The notes under the pieces were generated by a model. It was not told where the DNA came from and did not search any database. It saw nothing but the letters and a program-made list of their open reading frames with translations. Shown piece after piece: positions 32,925 through 63,980 of a stretch of DNA of 64,000 nt. How positions within the stretch are numbered: the stretch's first letter is position 1; each line of letters starts with the position of its first letter. Both the position numbers and the translations under genes were made by a program. Source of the stretch: Escherichia coli (GTDB taxonomy: Bacteria > Pseudomonadota > Gammaproteobacteria > Enterobacterales > Enterobacteriaceae); assembly GCF_048403405.1 (NCBI RefSeq), contig NZ_CP183129.1. One strand, 5' to 3'.

Positions 32925-35900
32925 ATGCGGATTATTTTTCTACGCAAGGAGTATTTATCTTTACTCCCGTCAATGATTGCATCTCTTTTCTCTGCTAACG
33001 GTGTCGCGGCGGCCATTGATTCATGTCAGGGATATGATATCAAAGCGAGTTGTCACGCCAGCAGGCAAAGCCTTTCAGGCATTACGCAGGACTGGAGCAT
33101 CGCCGATGGGCAATGGCTGGTTTTTTCGGATATGACCAATAACGCCAGCGGTGGGGCCGTATTTTTGCAACAAGGAGCGGAGTTTTCTCTATCGCCAGAA
33201 AATGAAACTGGAATGACTCTGTTTGCCAATAATACTGTCTCAGGAGAATATAATAACGGCGGGGCAATATTTGCTAAAGAAAACTCAACGCTGAATCTTA
33301 CTAATGTTATTTTTTCCGATAACGTTGCAGGTGGCTATGGTGGCGCAATCTATTCTTCTGGTACTAACGATACCGGTGTCGTCGATTTAAGTGTCACTAA
33401 CGCCGTGTTTCGCAATAACATCGCTAATGACGGCAAAGGTGGTGCAATTTATACCATCAACAATGACGTCTATTTAAGTGAAGTTATTTTTGACAATAAC
33501 CAGGCATATACATCAACAAGTTACAGCGATGGCGATGGGGGCGCAATCGATGTCACCGATAATAATAGCGATATCACGCATCCGTCAGGTTTCACAATAA
33601 TAAATAACACCGCATTTACAAATAACACTGCCGAAGGTTATGGCGGGGCAATTTATACCAATAGCGTGACGGCTCCCTATCTTATTGATATTTCGATTGA
33701 TGACAGCTACAGCCAGAACGGCGGCGTGTTACTCGATGAGAACAATAGCGCGGCAGGTTATGGGGATGGTCCTTCCACTGCGGCGGGCGGCTTTATGTAT
33801 CTCGGCTTAAGTGAAGTTACCTTTGATATTGCCGACGGAAAAACGCTGGTTATCGGCAATACAGAGAATGACGGAGCTGTTGACTCTATTGCTGGTACCG
33901 GGGTAATCACCAAAACAGGTTCCGGCGATCTGGTACTTAATGCAGATAACAATGACTTTACTGGCGAGATGCAGATAGAAAACGGTGAAGTTACCCTGGG
34001 CCGCAGCAACTCCCTGATGAATGTCGGCGATACGCATTGCCAGGACGATCCGCAAGACTGCTACGGTCTGACGATAGGGAGTATTGATCAGTATCAGAAT
34101 CAGGCTGAGCTAAACGTTGGCTCGACCCAACAAACTTTTGTGCACGCATTGACGGGCTTTCAGAATGGCACTTTAAATATCGATGCTGGTGGCAACGTTA
34201 CTGTTAATCAGGGCAGTTTTGCTGGCACCATCGAAGGTGCTGGTCAGCTCACCATTGCGCAAAACGGCAGCTACGTGCTGGCAGGGGCGCAGTCGATGGC
34301 GCTAACCGGCGATATAGTCGTTGATGATGGCGCGGTGCTTACGCTGGAAGGCGACGCGGCAGATCTTGCCGCTCTCCAGGACGATCCGCAGTCGATCGTG
34401 TTAAACGGCGGTGTGCTCGATCTCTCTGATTTCTCCACCTGGCAGAGCGGTACATCATACAACGATGGCCTTGAAGTCAGCGGCAGCAGCGGAACGGTTA
34501 TCGGCAGTCAGGATGTGGTAGATCTTGCAGGCGGAAACGATATGCATATCGGCGGTGACGGGAAAGATGGCGTCTACGTGGTGGTCGATGCGGGCGACGG
34601 GCTGGTTAGCCTGGCAAACAATAATAGTTACCTGGGCACCACGCAAATCGCTTCCGGTACGCTGGTGGTGAGCGACAACTCGCAGCTTGGCAATACCGAC
34701 GAAAACCGTCAGCTCATCTTTACTGATAGCCAACAACAAAGTGAGATGGAAATTACCGCTGACGTTGATACTCGTTCAGAGGCAGCAGGTCACGGGCGTG
34801 ATATTGAAATGCGCGCCGACGGTGAAGTGGCGGTTGATGCGGGGGTAGACACGCAGTGGGGCGCACTGATGGCTGACAGCAGCGGGCAGCATCTGGATGA
34901 GGGTAGCACATTGACTAAAACGGGAGCGGGTACGCTGGAAATGACCGCCAGTGGTACGACGCAGTCGGCGGTACGTGTCGAAGAAGGCACGCTGCAAGGC
35001 GATGTTGCGGATATCTTCCCTTATGCTTCGTCGCTGTGGGTCGGTGACGGGGCAACGTTCAAGACTGGCGCGGATCAGGATATTCAGTCAATTGATGTTA
35101 CTTCCAGCGGCACTATCGACATCAGCGATGGTACGGTTTTGCGCCTGACCGGGCAGGATACTTCCGTCGCCCTTAATGCCTCACTGTTTAACGGCGATGG
35201 GACGCTGGTGAATGCTACTGATGGCGTGACGTTGACAGGCGAGCTTAATACCAACCTTGAAACTGACAGCCTGACCTATCTTGCCGACGTGACGGTTAAT
35301 GGTGATCTGACCAATACGTCCGGTGCGGTTAGCCTGCAAAATGGCGTCGCTGGCGATACGCTGACGGTAAACGGTGATTATACCGGCGGCGGTACGCTAC
35401 TGCTCGATAGCGAATTAAACGGCGATGACTCGGCAAGTGACCAACTGGTGTTGAACGGTAATACTGCTGGCAACACGACCGTGGTAATTAATCCCATTAC
35501 GGGTATTGGTGAGCCGACATCTACAGGTATTAAAGTGGTTGATTTCGCAGCCGAACCCACGCAGTTTCAAAACAATGCGCAGTTCAGTCTGGCGGGCAGC
35601 GGCTACGTCAATATGGGCGCGTATGACTACACGCTGGTGGAAGATAACAACGACTGGTATCTGCGATCGCAAGAAGTAACGCCACCATCGCCACCTGATC
35701 CAGACCCGACTCCCGATCCTGATCCCACGCCGGATCCTGATCCAACACCCGACCCGGAACCTACGCCTGCCTACCAGCCGGTGTTGAATGCCAAAGTTGG
35801 TGGATATTTTAATAACCTGCGGGCGGCAAATCAGGCGTTTGTGATGGAGCGACACGATCACGCTGGTGGCGATGGTCAGACGCTGAATTTACGTATTATC

Positions 35901-36677
35901 GGCGGAGATTATCATTACACAGCAGCGGGGCAACTGGCTCAGCATGAAGATACTTCTACGGTGCAGCTTAGCGGCGACTTGTTTAGCGGACGCTGGGGCG
36001 CGGATGGCGAGTGGATGCTTGGGGCGGTTGGTGGCTACAGTGATAACCAGGGCGACAGCCGCTCGAATATGACCGGAACTCGCGCCGATAACCAGAACCA
36101 CGGTTATGCCGTTGGTCTGACCTCAAGCTGGTTTCAGCACGGTAATCAGAAGCAGGGGGCCTGGCTGGATAGCTGGCTGCAATACGCGTGGTTTAACAAT
36201 GATGTTTCCGAACATGAAGATGGCGTGGATCATTACCACTCATCGGGGATTATCGCCTCGCTGGAAGCCGGGTATCAGTGGTTACCGGGGCATGGAGTGG
36301 TGATTGAACCACAGGCGCAGGTGATTTATCAGGGCGTGCAGCAGGATGATTTTACCGCCGCTAACCATGCGCGCGTGTCACAATCGCAGGGTGATGATAT
36401 TCAAACGCGGCTGGGTTTACACAGCGAATGGCGTACCGCTGTTCATGTCATACCATCATTAGATCTGAATTATTATCACGATCCCCATGCGACGGAAATT
36501 GAAGAAGATGGCAGCACTATCAGTGACGATGCGGTGAAGCAACGGGGTGAAATAAAAGTGGGAGTCACGGGCAATATCAGTCAGCGAGTTTCGCTGCGCG
36601 GCAGCGTGGCGTGGCAGAAAGGGAGTGATGATTTTGCCCAGACGGCAGGGTTTTTGTCGATGACGGTGAAATGGTAG
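32925..36677 (+). CDS. yfaL: autotransporter adhesin (AIDA-type) YfaL
   Basis: 1250-aa ORF: passenger with GGAIY-type repeats, proline-rich linker, C-terminal beta-barrel ending in W. Confidence 0.85.
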   Translation: MRIIFLRKEYLSLLPSMIASLFSANGVAAAIDSCQGYDIKASCHASRQSLSGITQDWSIADGQWLVFSDMTNNASGGAVFLQQGAEFSLSPENETGMTLFANNTVSGEYNNGGAIFAKENSTLNLTNVIFSDNVAGGYGGAIYSSGTNDTGVVDLSVTNAVFRNNIANDGKGGAIYTINNDVYLSEVIFDNNQAYTSTSYSDGDGGAIDVTDNNSDITHPSGFTIINNTAFTNNTAEGYGGAIYTNSVTAPYLIDISIDDSYSQNGGVLLDENNSAAGYGDGPSTAAGGFMYLGLSEVTFDIADGKTLVIGNTENDGAVDSIAGTGVITKTGSGDLVLNADNNDFTGEMQIENGEVTLGRSNSLMNVGDTHCQDDPQDCYGLTIGSIDQYQNQAELNVGSTQQTFVHALTGFQNGTLNIDAGGNVTVNQGSFAGTIEGAGQLTIAQNGSYVLAGAQSMALTGDIVVDDGAVLTLEGDAADLAALQDDPQSIVLNGGVLDLSDFSTWQSGTSYNDGLEVSGSSGTVIGSQDVVDLAGGNDMHIGGDGKDGVYVVVDAGDGLVSLANNNSYLGTTQIASGTLVVSDNSQLGNTDENRQLIFTDSQQQSEMEITADVDTRSEAAGHGRDIEMRADGEVAVDAGVDTQWGALMADSSGQHLDEGSTLTKTGAGTLEMTASGTTQSAVRVEEGTLQGDVADIFPYASSLWVGDGATFKTGADQDIQSIDVTSSGTIDISDGTVLRLTGQDTSVALNASLFNGDGTLVNATDGVTLTGELNTNLETDSLTYLADVTVNGDLTNTSGAVSLQNGVAGDTLTVNGDYTGGGTLLLDSELNGDDSASDQLVLNGNTAGNTTVVINPITGIGEPTSTGIKVVDFAAEPTQFQNNAQFSLAGSGYVNMGAYDYTLVEDNNDWYLRSQEVTPPSPPDPDPTPDPDPTPDPDPTPDPEPTPAYQPVLNAKVGGYFNNLRAANQAFVMERHDHAGGDGQTLNLRIIGGDYHYTAAGQLAQHEDTSTVQLSGDLFSGRWGADGEWMLGAVGGYSDNQGDSRSNMTGTRADNQNHGYAVGLTSSWFQHGNQKQGAWLDSWLQYAWFNNDVSEHEDGVDHYHSSGIIASLEAGYQWLPGHGVVIEPQAQVIYQGVQQDDFTAANHARVSQSQGDDIQTRLGLHSEWRTAVHVIPSLDLNYYHDPHATEIEEDGSTISDDAVKQRGEIKVGVTGNISQRVSLRGSVAWQKGSDDFAQTAGFLSMTVKW
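35683..35769 (+). repeat. tandem PDPDPT-encoding repeats in yfaL linker
   Basis: cc(t/c)gatcc(t/a)ga(t/c)cc.ac.cc repeated; translation PPSPPDPDPTPDPDPTPDPDPTPDPEPTP. Confidence 0.6.
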
Positions 36678-37606: not shown

Positions 37607-40234
37607 ATGAGCGACCTTGCGAGAGAAATTACACCGGTCAACATTGAGGAAGAGCTGAAGAGCTCCTATCTGGATTATGCGATGTCGGTCATTGTTGGCC
37701 GTGCGCTGCCGGATGTCCGAGATGGCCTGAAGCCGGTACACCGTCGCGTACTTTACGCCATGAACGTACTAGGCAATGACTGGAACAAAGCCTATAAAAA
37801 ATCTGCCCGTGTCGTTGGTGACGTAATCGGTAAATACCATCCCCATGGTGACTTGGCGGTTTATAACACGATCGTCCGTATGGCGCAGCCATTCTCGCTG
37901 CGTTACATGCTGGTAGACGGTCAGGGTAACTTCGGTTCCATCGACGGCGACTCTGCGGCGGCAATGCGTTATACGGAAATCCGTCTGGCGAAAATTGCCC
38001 ATGAACTGATGGCCGATCTCGAAAAAGAGACGGTCGATTTCGTTGATAACTATGACGGCACGGAAAAAATTCCCGACGTCATGCCAACCAAAATTCCTAA
38101 CCTGCTGGTGAACGGTTCTTCCGGTATCGCCGTAGGTATGGCAACCAACATCCCGCCGCACAACCTGACGGAAGTCATCAACGGTTGTCTGGCGTATATC
38201 GATGATGAAGACATCAGCATTGAAGGGCTGATGGAACACATCCCGGGGCCAGATTTCCCGACGGCGGCAATCATCAACGGTCGTCGCGGTATTGAAGAAG
38301 CTTACCGTACCGGTCGCGGCAAGGTATATATCCGCGCCCGTGCTGAAGTGGAAGTTGACGCCAAAACCGGACGTGAAACCATTATCGTCCACGAAATTCC
38401 GTATCAGGTAAACAAAGCGCGCCTGATCGAGAAGATTGCGGAACTGGTAAAAGAAAAACGCGTGGAAGGCATCAGCGCGCTGCGTGACGAGTCTGACAAA
38501 GACGGTATGCGCATCGTGATTGAAGTGAAACGCGATGCGGTCGGTGAAGTTGTGCTCAACAACCTCTACTCCCAGACCCAGTTGCAGGTTTCTTTCGGTA
38601 TCAACATGGTGGCATTGCACCATGGTCAGCCGAAGATCATGAACCTGAAAGACATCATCGCGGCGTTTGTTCGTCACCGCCGTGAAGTGGTGACCCGTCG
38701 TACTATTTTCGAACTGCGTAAAGCTCGCGATCGTGCTCATATCCTTGAAGCATTAGCCGTGGCGCTGGCGAACATCGACCCGATCATCGAACTGATCCGT
38801 CATGCGCCGACGCCTGCAGAAGCGAAAACTGCGCTGGTTGCTAATCCGTGGCAGCTGGGCAACGTTGCCGCCATGCTCGAACGTGCTGGCGACGATGCTG
38901 CGCGTCCGGAATGGCTGGAGCCAGAGTTCGGCGTGCGCGATGGTCTGTACTATCTGACCGAACAGCAAGCCCAGGCAATTCTGGATCTGCGTCTGCAGAA
39001 ACTGACCGGTCTTGAGCACGAAAAACTGCTCGACGAATACAAAGAGCTGCTGGATCAGATTGCGGAACTGCTGCGTATTCTGGGTAGCGCCGATCGTCTG
39101 ATGGAAGTGATCCGTGAAGAGCTGGAGCTGGTTCGTGAACAGTTCGGCGACAAACGTCGTACTGAAATCACTGCCAACAGCGCCGACATCAACCTGGAAG
39201 ATCTAATCACACAGGAAGATGTGGTGGTAACACTCTCTCACCAGGGCTACGTGAAGTATCAGCCGCTTTCTGAATACGAAGCGCAGCGTCGTGGCGGGAA
39301 AGGTAAATCTGCCGCACGTATTAAAGAAGAAGACTTTATCGACCGACTGCTGGTGGCGAACACCCACGACCATATTCTGTGCTTCTCCAGCCGTGGTCGC
39401 GTCTATTCGATGAAAGTCTATCAGTTGCCGGAAGCCACTCGTGGCGCGCGCGGTCGTCCGATCGTCAACCTGCTGCCGCTGGAGCAGGACGAACGTATCA
39501 CTGCCATCCTGCCGGTGACCGAGTTTGAAGAGGGCGTGAAAGTCTTCATGGCGACCGCTAACGGTACCGTGAAGAAAACTGTCCTCACCGAGTTCAACCG
39601 TCTGCGTACCGCCGGTAAAGTGGCGATCAAACTTGTTGAAGGCGATGAGCTGATCGGCGTTGACCTGACCAGCGGCGAAGACGAAGTAATGCTGTTCTCC
39701 GCCGAAGGTAAAGTGGTGCGCTTTAAAGAGTCTTCTGTCCGTGCGATGGGCTGCAACACCACCGGTGTTCGCGGTATTCGTTTAGGCGAAGGCGATAAAG
39801 TCGTCTCTCTGATCGTGCCTCGTGGCGATGGCGCAATCCTCACCGCAACGCAGAACGGTTATGGTAAACGTACCGCAGTGGCGGAATACCCGACTAAGTC
39901 GCGTGCGACGAAAGGGGTTATCTCCATCAAGGTTACCGAACGTAACGGTTTAGTGGTTGGCGCGGTGCAGGTAGATGACTGCGACCAGATCATGATGATC
40001 ACCGATGCCGGTACGCTGGTACGTACTCGCGTTTCGGAAATCAGCATCGTGGGCCGTAACACCCAGGGCGTGATCCTCATCCGTACTGCGGAAGATGAAA
40101 ACGTAGTGGGTCTGCAACGTGTTGCTGAACCGGTTGACGAGGAAGATCTGGATACCATCGACGGCAGTGCCGCGGAAGGGGACGATGAAATCGCTCCGGA
40201 AGTGGACGTTGACGACGAGCCAGAAGAAGAATAA
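37607..40234 (+). CDS. gyrA: DNA gyrase subunit A; QRDR carries Leu83 and Asn87
   Basis: 875-aa ORF; codons 83 (TTG, 37853-37855) and 87 (AAC, 37865-37867) inside ...[17 protein letters not shown]... Confidence 0.95.
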
Positions 40235-40382: not shown

Positions 40383-47230
<6,848 letters not shown>

Positions 47231-50949: not shown

Positions 50950-52272
50950 TCAGAACAGCGTTAAACCAATGACGAAAATGACGCCGGAGAAGAGCAGGGC
51001 AGTGATGCAATAGCCCATGATGTCGCGGACACCGAGTCCGGCGATTGCCAGTGCTGGCAGCGCCCAGAATGGTTGTGCCATGTTCATCCATTGCTCGCCG
51101 TAGGCGATCGCCATTACCGATTTACCGAGATCAGCGCCCAGCGCCTGGGCTGCGGGTATCACGAAAGGTCCCTGAATAACCCAGTGACCGCCGCCAGACG
51201 GAACGGCGAAGTTAATCAGTGCAGAACTAAAAAAGGTCATTACCGGGAAGGTGTCTTTGTTCGCAACATTGATGAAGAATTCGGTAATGAGTCCGCCCAG
51301 ACCGGAGTGCTCCATCATCAGTTGGATCCCAGCGTAGAAGGGGAATTGCACCAAAATACCGGCAGTACTGCGTGCTGCCGCGCTGATAGCACGCATATAA
51401 GCCATTGGCGTTTTATGTAGCAGCAGACCCGCAATCATAAACATCAGGTTGACGGTATTGATGGTGATGTTGAAGCCATGTTCGCTGAAGTACATCGCAA
51501 GGTAAGCGATACCGAGTGCGCCGATGATCAACGTCAGAATGCGGCTTTCTTCCAGTCGCTCGGATGGTGGGGCATCTTTCGGTAGCTGCTTTTGGAAATC
51601 AGCCTCTTCCATGAGTAGTTTCGGATCGATACTCACCACGTCAGACGGTTTTGGCATCATCATGCGGGTGATAAATGGCATCACCACAATCAACGCCACA
51701 GTGATGAAAATATTAAAACCACTGAACAGAGTATCGCCCACCGGGATCAGCCCGGCGATATGCTCAACCGGGTTGCCCGGTGTTGCAGCCAACAGAGGCA
51801 TTGAGCCAGAGAAACCGCCACCCCAGGTGAGAAAACCAATGTAGGCGCAGGCAATGAGCAACGGATAATCAGAACCGGGTACTCGGCGGGCGACTTCACG
51901 GGCAAACATTGCGCCGACAACCAAACCAAATCCCCAGTTGATGACACAAGCGACTGAACCGAAGAAAGTAACCAGCATGACGCCCTGTACGGGCGTCTTT
52001 GCGGCGGAGGCGGCAGTACGCAGCAAACTTTTTACCGGAGCAGAGCTGGCAAGGGCATGACCGGTAACGATGATAAGCGCCATCTGCATACCAAACGCCA
52101 GCAAGTTCCAGAAACCGTCACCCCACATTTTCACCATGCTGATCGGCGTTTGTGGTGTTAACCAAAGCGCGATCACGAAAGTTAGCAATGTCAGCAACAT
52201 GGCAAAGATCAGTGGATCGGGAAGCCACCGGCTGACAAAACGCGTCATAAAACGCGATATGCGACCAATCAT
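50950..52272 (-). CDS. atoE: short-chain fatty acid transporter
   Basis: 440-aa polytopic membrane ORF between atoA and atoB. Confidence 0.85.
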   Translation of the reverse strand: MIGRISRFMTRFVSRWLPDPLIFAMLLTLLTFVIALWLTPQTPISMVKMWGDGFWNLLAFGMQMALIIVTGHALASSAPVKSLLRTAASAAKTPVQGVMLVTFFGSVACVINWGFGLVVGAMFAREVARRVPGSDYPLLIACAYIGFLTWGGGFSGSMPLLAATPGNPVEHIAGLIPVGDTLFSGFNIFITVALIVVMPFITRMMMPKPSDVVSIDPKLLMEEADFQKQLPKDAPPSERLEESRILTLIIGALGIAYLAMYFSEHGFNITINTVNLMFMIAGLLLHKTPMAYMRAISAAARSTAGILVQFPFYAGIQLMMEHSGLGGLITEFFINVANKDTFPVMTFFSSALINFAVPSGGGHWVIQGPFVIPAAQALGADLGKSVMAIAYGEQWMNMAQPFWALPALAIAGLGVRDIMGYCITALLFSGVIFVIGLTLF

Positions 52273-57151: not shown

Positions 57152-60001
57152 TTGAAATACCTTGCTTCTTTTCGTACAACCCTGAAAGCCTCGCGCTACA
57201 TGTTCAGAGCATTGGCGTTAGTGCTCTGGCTGTTGATTGCTTTTTCATCCGTTTTTTACATCGTTAATGCGTTACATCAGCGAGAATCGGAAATTCGTCA
57301 GGAATTTAATCTGAGTTCCGATCAGGCTCAGCGCTTTATTCAACGTACCTCTGATGTGATGAAAGAGCTGAAGTACATCGCTGAAAATCGCTTATCGGCA
57401 GAAAACGGTGTGCTTTCCCCGCGTGGACGAGAAACGCAGGCGGATGTGCCTGCGTTTGAACCGCTGTTTGCCGACTCCGATTGTTCCGCAATGAGTAACA
57501 CCTGGCGAGGCTCTCTGGAGTCATTGGCGTGGTTTATGCGCTACTGGCGCGATAATTTCTCTGCGGCTTACGATCTCAACCGGGTATTTTTAATCGGCAG
57601 CGATAACCTCTGCATGGCCAATTTCGGTCTGCGTGATATGCCAGTGGAACGCGATACCGCGTTGAAAGCGTTGCATGAACGCATTAATAAATATCGAAAT
57701 GCACCACAAGATGATAGTGGCAGTAACCTCTACTGGATCAGCGAAGGTCCGCGCCCTGGCGTCGGGTATTTTTACGCGTTGACGCCAGTTTATCTGGCGA
57801 ACCGGTTGCAGGCGCTTTTGGGTGTCGAGCAGACTATCCGGATGGAGAATTTTTTCTTACCTGGTACGTTGCCGATGGGGGTTACCATTCTTGATGAAAA
57901 TGGTCATACCCTGATTTCGCTTACCGGACCAGAAAGTAAAATTAAGGGCGATCCTCGCTGGATGCAGGAACGCTCCTGGTTTGGCTATACGGAAGGGTTC
58001 CGGGAGCTGGTGCTGAAGAAAAATCTGCCACCCTCATCGCTAAGCATCGTGTATTCGGTGCCGGTTGATAAGGTGCTGGAACGCATTCGCATGTTGATCC
58101 TTAACGCAATTTTGCTGAATGTGCTTGCCGGAGCTGCATTGTTTACTCTCGCGCGGATGTACGAGCGACGTATTTTCATTCCGGCGGAAAGCGACGCCCT
58201 GCGACTGGAAGAACATGAGCAGTTTAATCGCAAGATTGTCGCCTCCGCGCCAGTGGGTATCTGCATTTTGCGTACCGCTGATGGCGTCAATATTTTAAGT
58301 AACGAACTGGCGCATACCTATCTCAATATGCTTACGCATGAGGATCGCCAACGGCTGACACAAATTATCTGTGGGCAGCAGGTCAATTTTGTTGATGTCC
58401 TGACCAGCAACAATACCAATCTGCAAATCAGCTTCGTCCATTCGCGCTATCGTAATGAAAACGTGGCCATTTGTGTGCTGGTGGATGTTTCTTCGCGCGT
58501 GAAGATGGAAGAGTCGTTGCAGGAGATGGCACAAGCAGCGGAACAGGCGAGCCAGTCAAAATCGATGTTCCTTGCCACCGTCAGTCATGAGCTGCGAACG
58601 CCGCTGTATGGCATTATCGGTAACCTGGATCTGTTGCAAACCAAAGAGTTACCGAAAGGCGTCGATCGTCTGGTGACGGCAATGAACAACTCTTCCAGCC
58701 TGTTGTTGAAAATTATCAGCGATATTCTCGATTTCTCGAAGATTGAATCGGAACAGTTGAAGATCGAACCGCGTGAGTTTTCACCGCGTGAAGTGATGAA
58801 CCACATCACCGCCAACTATTTACCGCTGGTGGTACGCAAGCAGTTAGGCTTGTACTGCTTTATTGAACCGGATGTGCCAGTGGCCTTAAATGGCGACCCG
58901 ATGCGTTTACAGCAGGTCATCTCCAACCTGTTGAGTAACGCCATAAAATTCACCGATACCGGCTGTATAGTTTTGCATGTTCGCACTGATGGCGATTATC
59001 TCTCTATCCGTGTTCGCGATACCGGCGTGGGGATTCCGGCGAAAGAAGTGGTGCGCTTGTTTGATCCCTTCTTCCAGGTCGGAACGGGCGTACAGCGTAA
59101 CTTCCAGGGGACCGGTCTGGGTCTGGCGATTTGTGAAAAACTGATCAGCATGATGGACGGCGATATCTCGGTAGATTCAGAACCGGGAATGGGTAGCCAG
59201 TTTACCGTGCGTATTCCGTTGTACGGCGCTCAGTACCCGCAGAAAAAAGGCGTGGAAGGGTTGAGTGGTAAACGCTGCTGGCTGGCGGTCCGCAATGCGT
59301 CGCTCTGTCAGTTCCTGGAAACCAGTTTGCAGCGCAGCGGCATCGTCGTTACAACATACGAAGGGCAGGAACCGACTCCCGAAGATGTGTTAATTACTGA
59401 CGAGGTAGTGAGTAAAAAATGGCAGGGTAGAGCGGTAGTGACCTTCTGTCGTCGCCATATTGGTATTCCGCTGGAGAAAGCGCCAGGGGAGTGGGTACAC
59501 AGTGTGGCTGCCCCGCATGAGCTACCGGCATTGTTGGCGCGTATTTATTTGATCGAGATGGAGAGCGACGATCCTGCTAACGCTCTGCCGTTAACGGACA
59601 AAGCGGTCAGCGATAACGACGATATGATGATTCTGGTCGTGGATGATCATCCGATTAACCGGCGTCTGCTGGCAGATCAGTTGGGATCGTTGGGCTATCA
59701 ATGTAAAACCGCGAATGATGGCGTCGATGCGCTTAATGTACTTAGCAAGAATCATATTGATATCGTGCTTAGCGACGTCAACATGCCAAATATGGATGGT
59801 TACCGCTTGACGCAACGCATTCGTCAGTTGGGACTGACGTTGCCGGTAATCGGAGTAACTGCTAATGCGTTGGCTGAAGAGAAGCAGCGGTGTCTGGAGT
59901 CTGGTATGGACAGCTGCCTGTCGAAGCCGGTAACGCTGGATGTGATAAAACAGACGCTAACGGTATATGCCGAGAGGGTCAGGAAATCGCGGGATTCGTA
60001 G
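57152..60001 (+). CDS. rcsC: hybrid sensor histidine kinase RcsC
   Basis: 949-aa ORF: H-box SHELRTPLYGI, HATPase domain, C-terminal receiver (DDHPINRRLL...D...K). Confidence 0.9.
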   Translation: MKYLASFRTTLKASRYMFRALALVLWLLIAFSSVFYIVNALHQRESEIRQEFNLSSDQAQRFIQRTSDVMKELKYIAENRLSAENGVLSPRGRETQADVPAFEPLFADSDCSAMSNTWRGSLESLAWFMRYWRDNFSAAYDLNRVFLIGSDNLCMANFGLRDMPVERDTALKALHERINKYRNAPQDDSGSNLYWISEGPRPGVGYFYALTPVYLANRLQALLGVEQTIRMENFFLPGTLPMGVTILDENGHTLISLTGPESKIKGDPRWMQERSWFGYTEGFRELVLKKNLPPSSLSIVYSVPVDKVLERIRMLILNAILLNVLAGAALFTLARMYERRIFIPAESDALRLEEHEQFNRKIVASAPVGICILRTADGVNILSNELAHTYLNMLTHEDRQRLTQIICGQQVNFVDVLTSNNTNLQISFVHSRYRNENVAICVLVDVSSRVKMEESLQEMAQAAEQASQSKSMFLATVSHELRTPLYGIIGNLDLLQTKELPKGVDRLVTAMNNSSSLLLKIISDILDFSKIESEQLKIEPREFSPREVMNHITANYLPLVVRKQLGLYCFIEPDVPVALNGDPMRLQQVISNLLSNAIKFTDTGCIVLHVRTDGDYLSIRVRDTGVGIPAKEVVRLFDPFFQVGTGVQRNFQGTGLGLAICEKLISMMDGDISVDSEPGMGSQFTVRIPLYGAQYPQKKGVEGLSGKRCWLAVRNASLCQFLETSLQRSGIVVTTYEGQEPTPEDVLITDEVVSKKWQGRAVVTFCRRHIGIPLEKAPGEWVHSVAAPHELPALLARIYLIEMESDDPANALPLTDKAVSDNDDMMILVVDDHPINRRLLADQLGSLGYQCKTANDGVDALNVLSKNHIDIVLSDVNMPNMDGYRLTQRIRQLGLTLPVIGVTANALAEEKQRCLESGMDSCLSKPVTLDVIKQTLTVYAERVRKSRDS

Positions 60002-60002
60002 G

Positions 60003-60086
60003 GCGGATAAGGCGTTTACGCCGCATCTGGCATTCAGTGCAAATGCCAGATGCGACGCTGACGCGTCTTATCTGGCCTACAGATGA
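60003..60086. repeat. REP element(s) between convergent rcsC and rcsB
   Basis: ggcggataaggcgtttacgccgcatctggca ... gccagatgcgacgctgacgcgtcttatctggcctac. Confidence 0.6.
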
Positions 60087-63737: not shown

Positions 63738-63830
63738 AAAAAAAACCGGATGCGAGGCATCCGGTTGAAATAGGGGTAAACAGACATTCAGAAATGAATG
63801 ACGGTAATAAATAAAGTTAATGATGATAGC
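63738..63830 (-). ncRNA. micF: MicF small regulatory RNA (antisense regulator of ompF)
   Basis: Minus strand reads GCTATCATCATTAACTTTATTTATTACCGTCATTCATTTCTGAATGTCTGTTTACCCCTATTTCAACCGGATGCCTCGCATCCGGTTTTTTTT with terminal hairpin and U-tract. Confidence 0.85.
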
Positions 63831-63980
63831 GGGAGTTATTCTAGTTGCGAGTGAAGGTTTTGTTTTGACATTCAGTGCTGTCAAATACTTAAGAATAAGT
63901 TATTGATTTTACCCTTGAATTATTATTGCTTGATGTTAGGTGCTTATTTCGCCATTCCGCAATAATCTTAAAAAGTTCCC

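Follow-up and report, generated by a model that had tools for sequence, protein, structure and literature searches.

A CC38-type chromosomal gyrA carrying the known quinolone-resistance substitutions S83L and D87N in an Escherichia coli genome closest to the gut strain MS 69-1

The stretch of Escherichia coli DNA that we analyzed, a 64-kb segment referred to here as the window, carries gyrA at 37607..40234 on the plus strand. This gene encodes DNA gyrase subunit A (875 aa) and is the sole long open reading frame (ORF) over the reported site. Its assignment draws on the ORF list, the translation, an alignment to 6rks, and the annotation of strain MS 69-1 at the same position. The neighboring genes are ubiG and yfaA, which also flank gyrA in the MS 69-1 annotation, and the regional gene order runs from menE, pmrD, and the arn operon through glp, nrdAB, yfaL, ubiG, gyrA, and yfaA and on to ato and rcsCBD. 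This is an ordinary chromosomal context, and the gene is the E. coli gyrA orthologue at its conserved ubiG-gyrA-yfaA position. Across the genomes that we searched, gyrA was present in 5425 of 5426, with a median of one copy.

To place the residues in reference numbering, we aligned the window GyrA to 6rks_A (PDB), a wild-type E. coli GyrA of 875 aa. The alignment was full length and free of gaps, with 872 of 875 residues the same, and the three differences were S83L, D87N, and D678E. The first two fall within the quinolone resistance-determining region (QRDR; 37805..37924, plus strand), whose limits at codons 67 to 106 follow the conventional definition and which is wild type at every other position. 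Counting from the ATG, codon 83 (37853..37855) reads TTG, for Leu, where the wild type has TCG, for Ser (C>T at 37854), and codon 87 (37865..37867) reads AAC, for Asn, where the wild type has GAC, for Asp (G>A at 37865). Codons 84 to 86 (GCG GTT TAT) lie between them, so that 37853-37867 spans precisely codons 83 to 87. Sequence comparison also showed the codon for the catalytic Tyr122 (TAT, 37970..37972) to be unchanged.

A preliminary description of this DNA had reported exactly this pair, at these codons, each produced by a single transition. The reference alignment bore this out, with Ser83 and Asp87 in 6rks_A, as did a comparison with the gyrA of strain GN02461, from which the window gene differs at only two nucleotides, C>T at nucleotide 248 (37854) and G>A at nucleotide 259 (37865). 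With Leu83 and Asn87 in reference numbering, the gene is a gyrA S83L/D87N resistance allele, and the two changes are indeed the classic chromosomal quinolone-resistance substitutions (PMC2714960). The third difference, a GAA codon for Glu at 39638..39640, departs from K-12-type GyrA. Because GN02461 has a wild-type QRDR and no other amino acid difference from the window, it must also have D678E. This substitution is a lineage polymorphism and does not count as a resistance change, and a report on sequence type 38 (ST38) lists it with an "unknown phenotype" (PMC11246641).

When a 25-kb query around gyrA was searched, the best match was E. coli MS 69-1 (NZ_CP146675.1), a Human Microbiome Project (HMP) strain from the human colon (BEI HM-347). 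Over the whole 64-kb window the MS 69-1 chromosome showed 0 substitutions and 2 indels. The first indel is at 43450, where the window has a run of seven A and MS 69-1 (CP146675.1), GN02461, TUM14771, MB31, 190693, and 266917_2 all have six. Because of the extra A, the alpha-2-macroglobulin gene (yfaS) reads as two ORFs in the window, 42610-43464 and 43358-47230. A homopolymer error in the sequencing behind the window's assembly is the most likely cause, rather than a true pseudogene. The second is a stretch of ten bases, AGACCGGAGT, at 51299-51308, which the window shares with all five relatives and which the complete MS 69-1 record lacks. Here the window has an intact 440-aa ORF for atoE (50950-52272), and the complete record annotates the gene as "frameshifted." The missing ten bases imply that the window and the complete record do not share one assembly or stock; judged on the near identity of the two, the window probably represents another assembly or stock of MS 69-1.

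The window also contains a 768-bp IS1 element (25467-26234; IS1B in the MS 69-1 annotation) flanked by a perfect 9-bp target duplication, AAGCCACCG, at 25458-25466 and 26235-26243. The element sits ~44 nucleotides into a gene for a LysR-family regulator (minus strand, 24632 onward) that runs divergently from the gene for an MFS transporter (26439-27629), and it probably inactivates the regulator. Among the top-ranked 25-kb matches of complete genomes, the insertion was found only in MS 69-1, 4621, TUM1226, and OX030728; it is absent from the close relatives GN02461, TUM14771, and MB31 and is thus a clone-specific marker. Between yfaU and glpC, on the minus strand, an ISNCY-family transposase/rpnE gene occupies 16662-17621, next to a truncated ORF at 16476-16661. 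This locus is also found in close relatives, and the rpnE of 190693 and 266917_2 is annotated as a shorter, different protein. An Rfam scan of the window returned nothing related to gyrA and only two RNAs, both above the gathering score and both ordinary for this part of the chromosome: the MicF antisense RNA (63738-63831, minus strand, 116.8 bits), upstream of the expected place of ompC, and naRNA4, a REP-derived nucleoid-associated RNA (60001-60077, plus strand, 73.4 bits), between rcsC and rcsB.

We assessed how common the two substitutions are by searching exact 30-mers over codons 80 to 89 against 5426 complete RefSeq E. coli genomes, a collection skewed to clinical, multidrug-resistant isolates. 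Leu83/Asn87 was found in 1701 of the 5426 (31%), 1370 of them with GTT and 331 with GTC at codon 85. The wild type accounted for 2653 genomes (49%; 2014 with GTT and 639 with GTC), and other states made up the remaining ~20%. The pair is clearly commonplace despite the bias of the collection, and its occurrence on both codon 85 backgrounds points to recurrent selection. S83L plus D87N double mutants are known in ST131-H30, ST1193, ST410, and ST648 and in clinical urinary tract infection isolates. These share with the window the gene, the residues, and the codon changes (TCG>TTG and GAC>AAC); the window differs in its background, which is a CC38-type gyrA allele. We also considered mobile resistant gyrA genes on plasmids. 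This idea was rejected, as most of the PLSDB records with gyrA are mislabelled chromosomes of 4.8-4.9 Mb or large fragments. In all, 16 PLSDB "plasmid" records gave gyrA matches, among them the 148-kb E. coli record NZ_CP051662.1, whose gyrA is flagged "fluoroquinolone resistant"; that record may be a fragment of an assembly or hold an insert of chromosomal origin.

The window gyrA is 100% identical in 32 complete E. coli genomes, and a gyrA with 99% identity to it or more occurs in just 140 of 5425 genomes, which marks its background as a minority allele. To ask whether the same allele exists with Ser83 and Asp87, we rebuilt the window gene with both codons reverted, 83 to TCG and 87 to GAC. 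This reverted query matched the gyrA of at least 53 complete genomes at 100% identity, including one named "strain ST38" (OZ204848), and several genomes were one mismatch away from the mutant and the reverted query alike. One of these is the ST38 strain 266917_2, whose gyrA differs from the window at 37865 only and thus carries S83L alone, in agreement with the publication on that strain (PMC6249433). Wild-type, single-mutant, and double-mutant states on one allele background form a classic stepwise series.

The close relatives of the window allowed the placement of these changes to be weighed against the rest of the region. Over ~48 kb of aligned sequence, the window differs by 4 SNPs from GN02461 (human blood, USA) and by 3 SNPs from TUM14771 (human feces, Japan), both with wild-type gyrA, and in each case two of these SNPs are the C>T at 37854 and the G>A at 37865. 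MB31, from poultry in Cuba, is the same double mutant and has 0 SNPs relative to the window over ~48 kb. The probability that at least two of three to four SNPs would fall inside one pre-specified 15-nt stretch of ~48 kb is ~3-6e-7, so the changes at codons 83 and 87 are not due to chance. This bears directly on the idea that Leu83 and Asn87 are neutral lineage polymorphisms or sequencing errors, with no link to drug selection. Nothing specific speaks for that idea, although D678E in the same gene is a polymorphism of just this kind. Both changes at codons 83 and 87 are nonsynonymous, otherwise identical alleles with the wild-type residues are common, the pair recurs on different synonymous backgrounds, and its resistance effect has been seen in isogenic constructs (PMC2714960). 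In addition, the exact allele occurs in 32 independent assemblies, which a sequencing artifact would not produce. On SNP placement, recurrence, the shared allele, and the isogenic MICs, we rejected both neutral polymorphism and sequencing error, to which we give practically no credence.

A more serious alternative is that this lineage did not generate the resistant allele, or an S83L precursor of it, but acquired it from a different resistant CC38 sublineage through homologous recombination. A route of this kind has been proposed for ST1193. Two ST38 strains, 190693 (a double mutant) and 266917_2, provide the evidence for recombination close to the gene. From ~36000 to 62000 each differs from the window by 0-1 SNP. 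To the left of ~36000, across yfaL, nrdA, and the glp genes, they differ by 10-43 positions per kb (1-4% divergence). The sharp mosaic boundary at ~36000 lies in the 3' part of yfaL (32925-36677), 1.6 kb upstream of gyrA, and is a recombination endpoint. A tract of at least 26 kb that includes gyrA (~36000 to beyond 62000) is thus identical between two CC38 sublineages, and at least one recombination event within CC38 had an endpoint adjoining gyrA. In situ mutation would also be mimicked by the import of a short tract if the flanks of the donor were identical.

GN02461 and TUM14771, whose flanks are of the same type as the window's, carry the shared tract together with a wild-type QRDR, so the mosaic need not involve the resistance mutations. 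Comparisons of these two genomes with the window showed no cluster of flanking SNPs marking an imported tract, and the wild type, the single mutant, and the double mutant are all found on the same allele. Two in situ transitions fit these data with no additional event. We therefore regard import of the window's allele or its precursor as highly improbable. The related proposition, that homologous recombination carried the resistance allele, or its S83L precursor, from one CC38 sublineage to another with no independent origin in each, seems to us distinctly unlikely; if it were true, chromosomal QRDR alleles would be partly "mobile" within CC38. The comparisons instead indicate point mutations on a native CC38-type allele that were, as far as the sequences can tell, fixed by selection and inherited clonally.

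The assignment of this background to CC38 comes from published genomes. The gyrA background of the window is that of 266917_2, 190693, and "strain ST38" OZ204848, and from this local identity to published ST38/CC38 genomes we infer that MS 69-1 belongs to CC38. The chromosome of strain 190693 served as the reference in a study of CC38 in which QRDR mutations were absent from some sub-clusters and reached up to 82% in another (PMC12946264); such an uneven distribution fits repeated acquisition within the complex. The mutated and unmutated sublineages of the ST38/CC38 literature match the wild-type, single, and double states that we observed. TUM14771 also appears in an ST38 paper, where its accession is cited merely as a BLAST match (PMC11246641). 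Most described ST38 isolates are ciprofloxacin susceptible or carry qnr, and lack the full QRDR triple. Relative to these, the MS 69-1 clone is a resistant minority among ST38/CC38.

How much resistance the gyrA pair would confer depends on the rest of the genome. Isogenic derivatives of MG1655 provide a scale: the ciprofloxacin MIC was 0.016 mg/L for the wild type, 0.38 mg/L with gyrA S83L, 0.25 mg/L with gyrA D87N, and 0.38 mg/L with both, equal to S83L alone; adding parC S80I to S83L gave 1 mg/L (PMC2714960). Strain LM693 of the same isogenic set, with gyrA S83L and D87N plus parC S80I, had an MIC of 32 mg/L and a relative fitness of 1.01, and the same triple was found in 15 of 30 resistant urinary tract infection isolates (PMC2714960). 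In a recent survey, resistance to ciprofloxacin and levofloxacin involved at least S83L, D87N, and S80I (PMC12937200).

The preliminary description had called the gyrA pair a high-level determinant and had pointed to parC codons 80 and 84 as the place to look next. Given 0.38 mg/L for the pair and 32 mg/L once S80I is added, the first of these statements holds for the triple genotype but not for the gyrA pair alone. The genes parC and parE lie outside the window, and we located them by synteny in the MS 69-1 chromosome. There, parC (L004, 24192-26450) encodes S80I (ATC) and a wild-type Glu84, so that a ParC QRDR substitution accompanies the gyrA pair in the same genome. MS 69-1 ParC also differs from PDB 1zvu by A108T and D475E, the latter of unknown phenotype in the ST38 report (PMC11246641), and ParE is wild type at 416, 444, 445, 458, 460, and 529. 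Because the MS 69-1 assembly differs from the window by two indels, we infer the parC and parE state of the window's source from that assembly. The gyrA/parC triple of LM693 is exactly that of the MS 69-1 genome, and from these isogenic strains a raised quinolone MIC, with nalidixic acid resistance and an increased ciprofloxacin MIC, is predicted for MS 69-1 (PMC2714960). The TraDIS paper that used this strain gives its origin only, with no ciprofloxacin or nalidixic acid susceptibility (PMC10958030).

The two residues changed in the window have a well-described role in drug binding. Biochemical work on the E. coli enzyme concludes that two residues on GyrA helix 4, Ser83 and the acidic residue that follows four positions later, anchor a water-metal-ion bridge through which quinolones interact with gyrase, and that this bridge mainly positions the drug (PMC9917921). 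In E. coli gyrase the bridge is reported not to supply binding energy, unlike in the Bacillus anthracis enzymes (PMC9917921). Bridge mutants of other type II topoisomerases, at ParC S80/E84 and at the Ser/acidic pair of GyrA in other species, affect the same pair of helix 4 anchors (PMC9917921, PMC3632122). In this mechanism, Ser83 and Asp87, on helix 4 and adjoining the DNA-cleavage site, anchor the water-Mg2+ bridge that holds and positions the keto-acid group of the quinolone in the gyrase-DNA cleavage complex. With S83L and D87N both anchors would be lost, and because both are replaced the drug would no longer stabilize gyrase cleavage complexes. Topoisomerase IV would then become the limiting target, and ParC S80I would complete a three-mutation genotype expected to raise ciprofloxacin resistance to a high level with no measurable loss of fitness.

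Taken together, the explanation that we hold with high confidence is that of a native CC38-type gyrA with two selected in situ mutations, loss of the bridge anchors, and parC S80I completing the high-level genotype. In an ancestor of the clone, a CC38-type E. coli of phylogroup D, the native chromosomal gyrA would have acquired two transitions, TCG>TTG and GAC>AAC, one after the other while exposed to quinolones. Both would then have been inherited clonally, and the clone that carries them now occurs in humans and poultry. The genotype had been taken to mark a quinolone-selected isolate as opposed to a reference strain. Selection stands, but the same double-mutant region in MB31, from Cuban poultry, suggests that it most likely acted on the ancestor of the clone and not necessarily on the window's own isolate; as for the second part, the best match is itself an HMP reference strain.

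The gyrA genotype of the window is an already-known resistance genotype, carried by roughly a third of complete E. coli genomes, and neither gyrase biology nor the study of resistance gains anything new from it. Its interest lies with the strain. MS 69-1 (BEI HM-347) is a widely distributed HMP gut strain that has served in work on choline metabolism in the gut and in TraDIS testing, and it is predicted to be ciprofloxacin resistant through chromosomal target mutations. This predicted resistance matters to users who apply quinolone selection to MS 69-1 or treat it as an ordinary commensal. More generally, the strain illustrates that quinolone-resistant clones circulate in the gut when there is no infection, in humans as well as in poultry.
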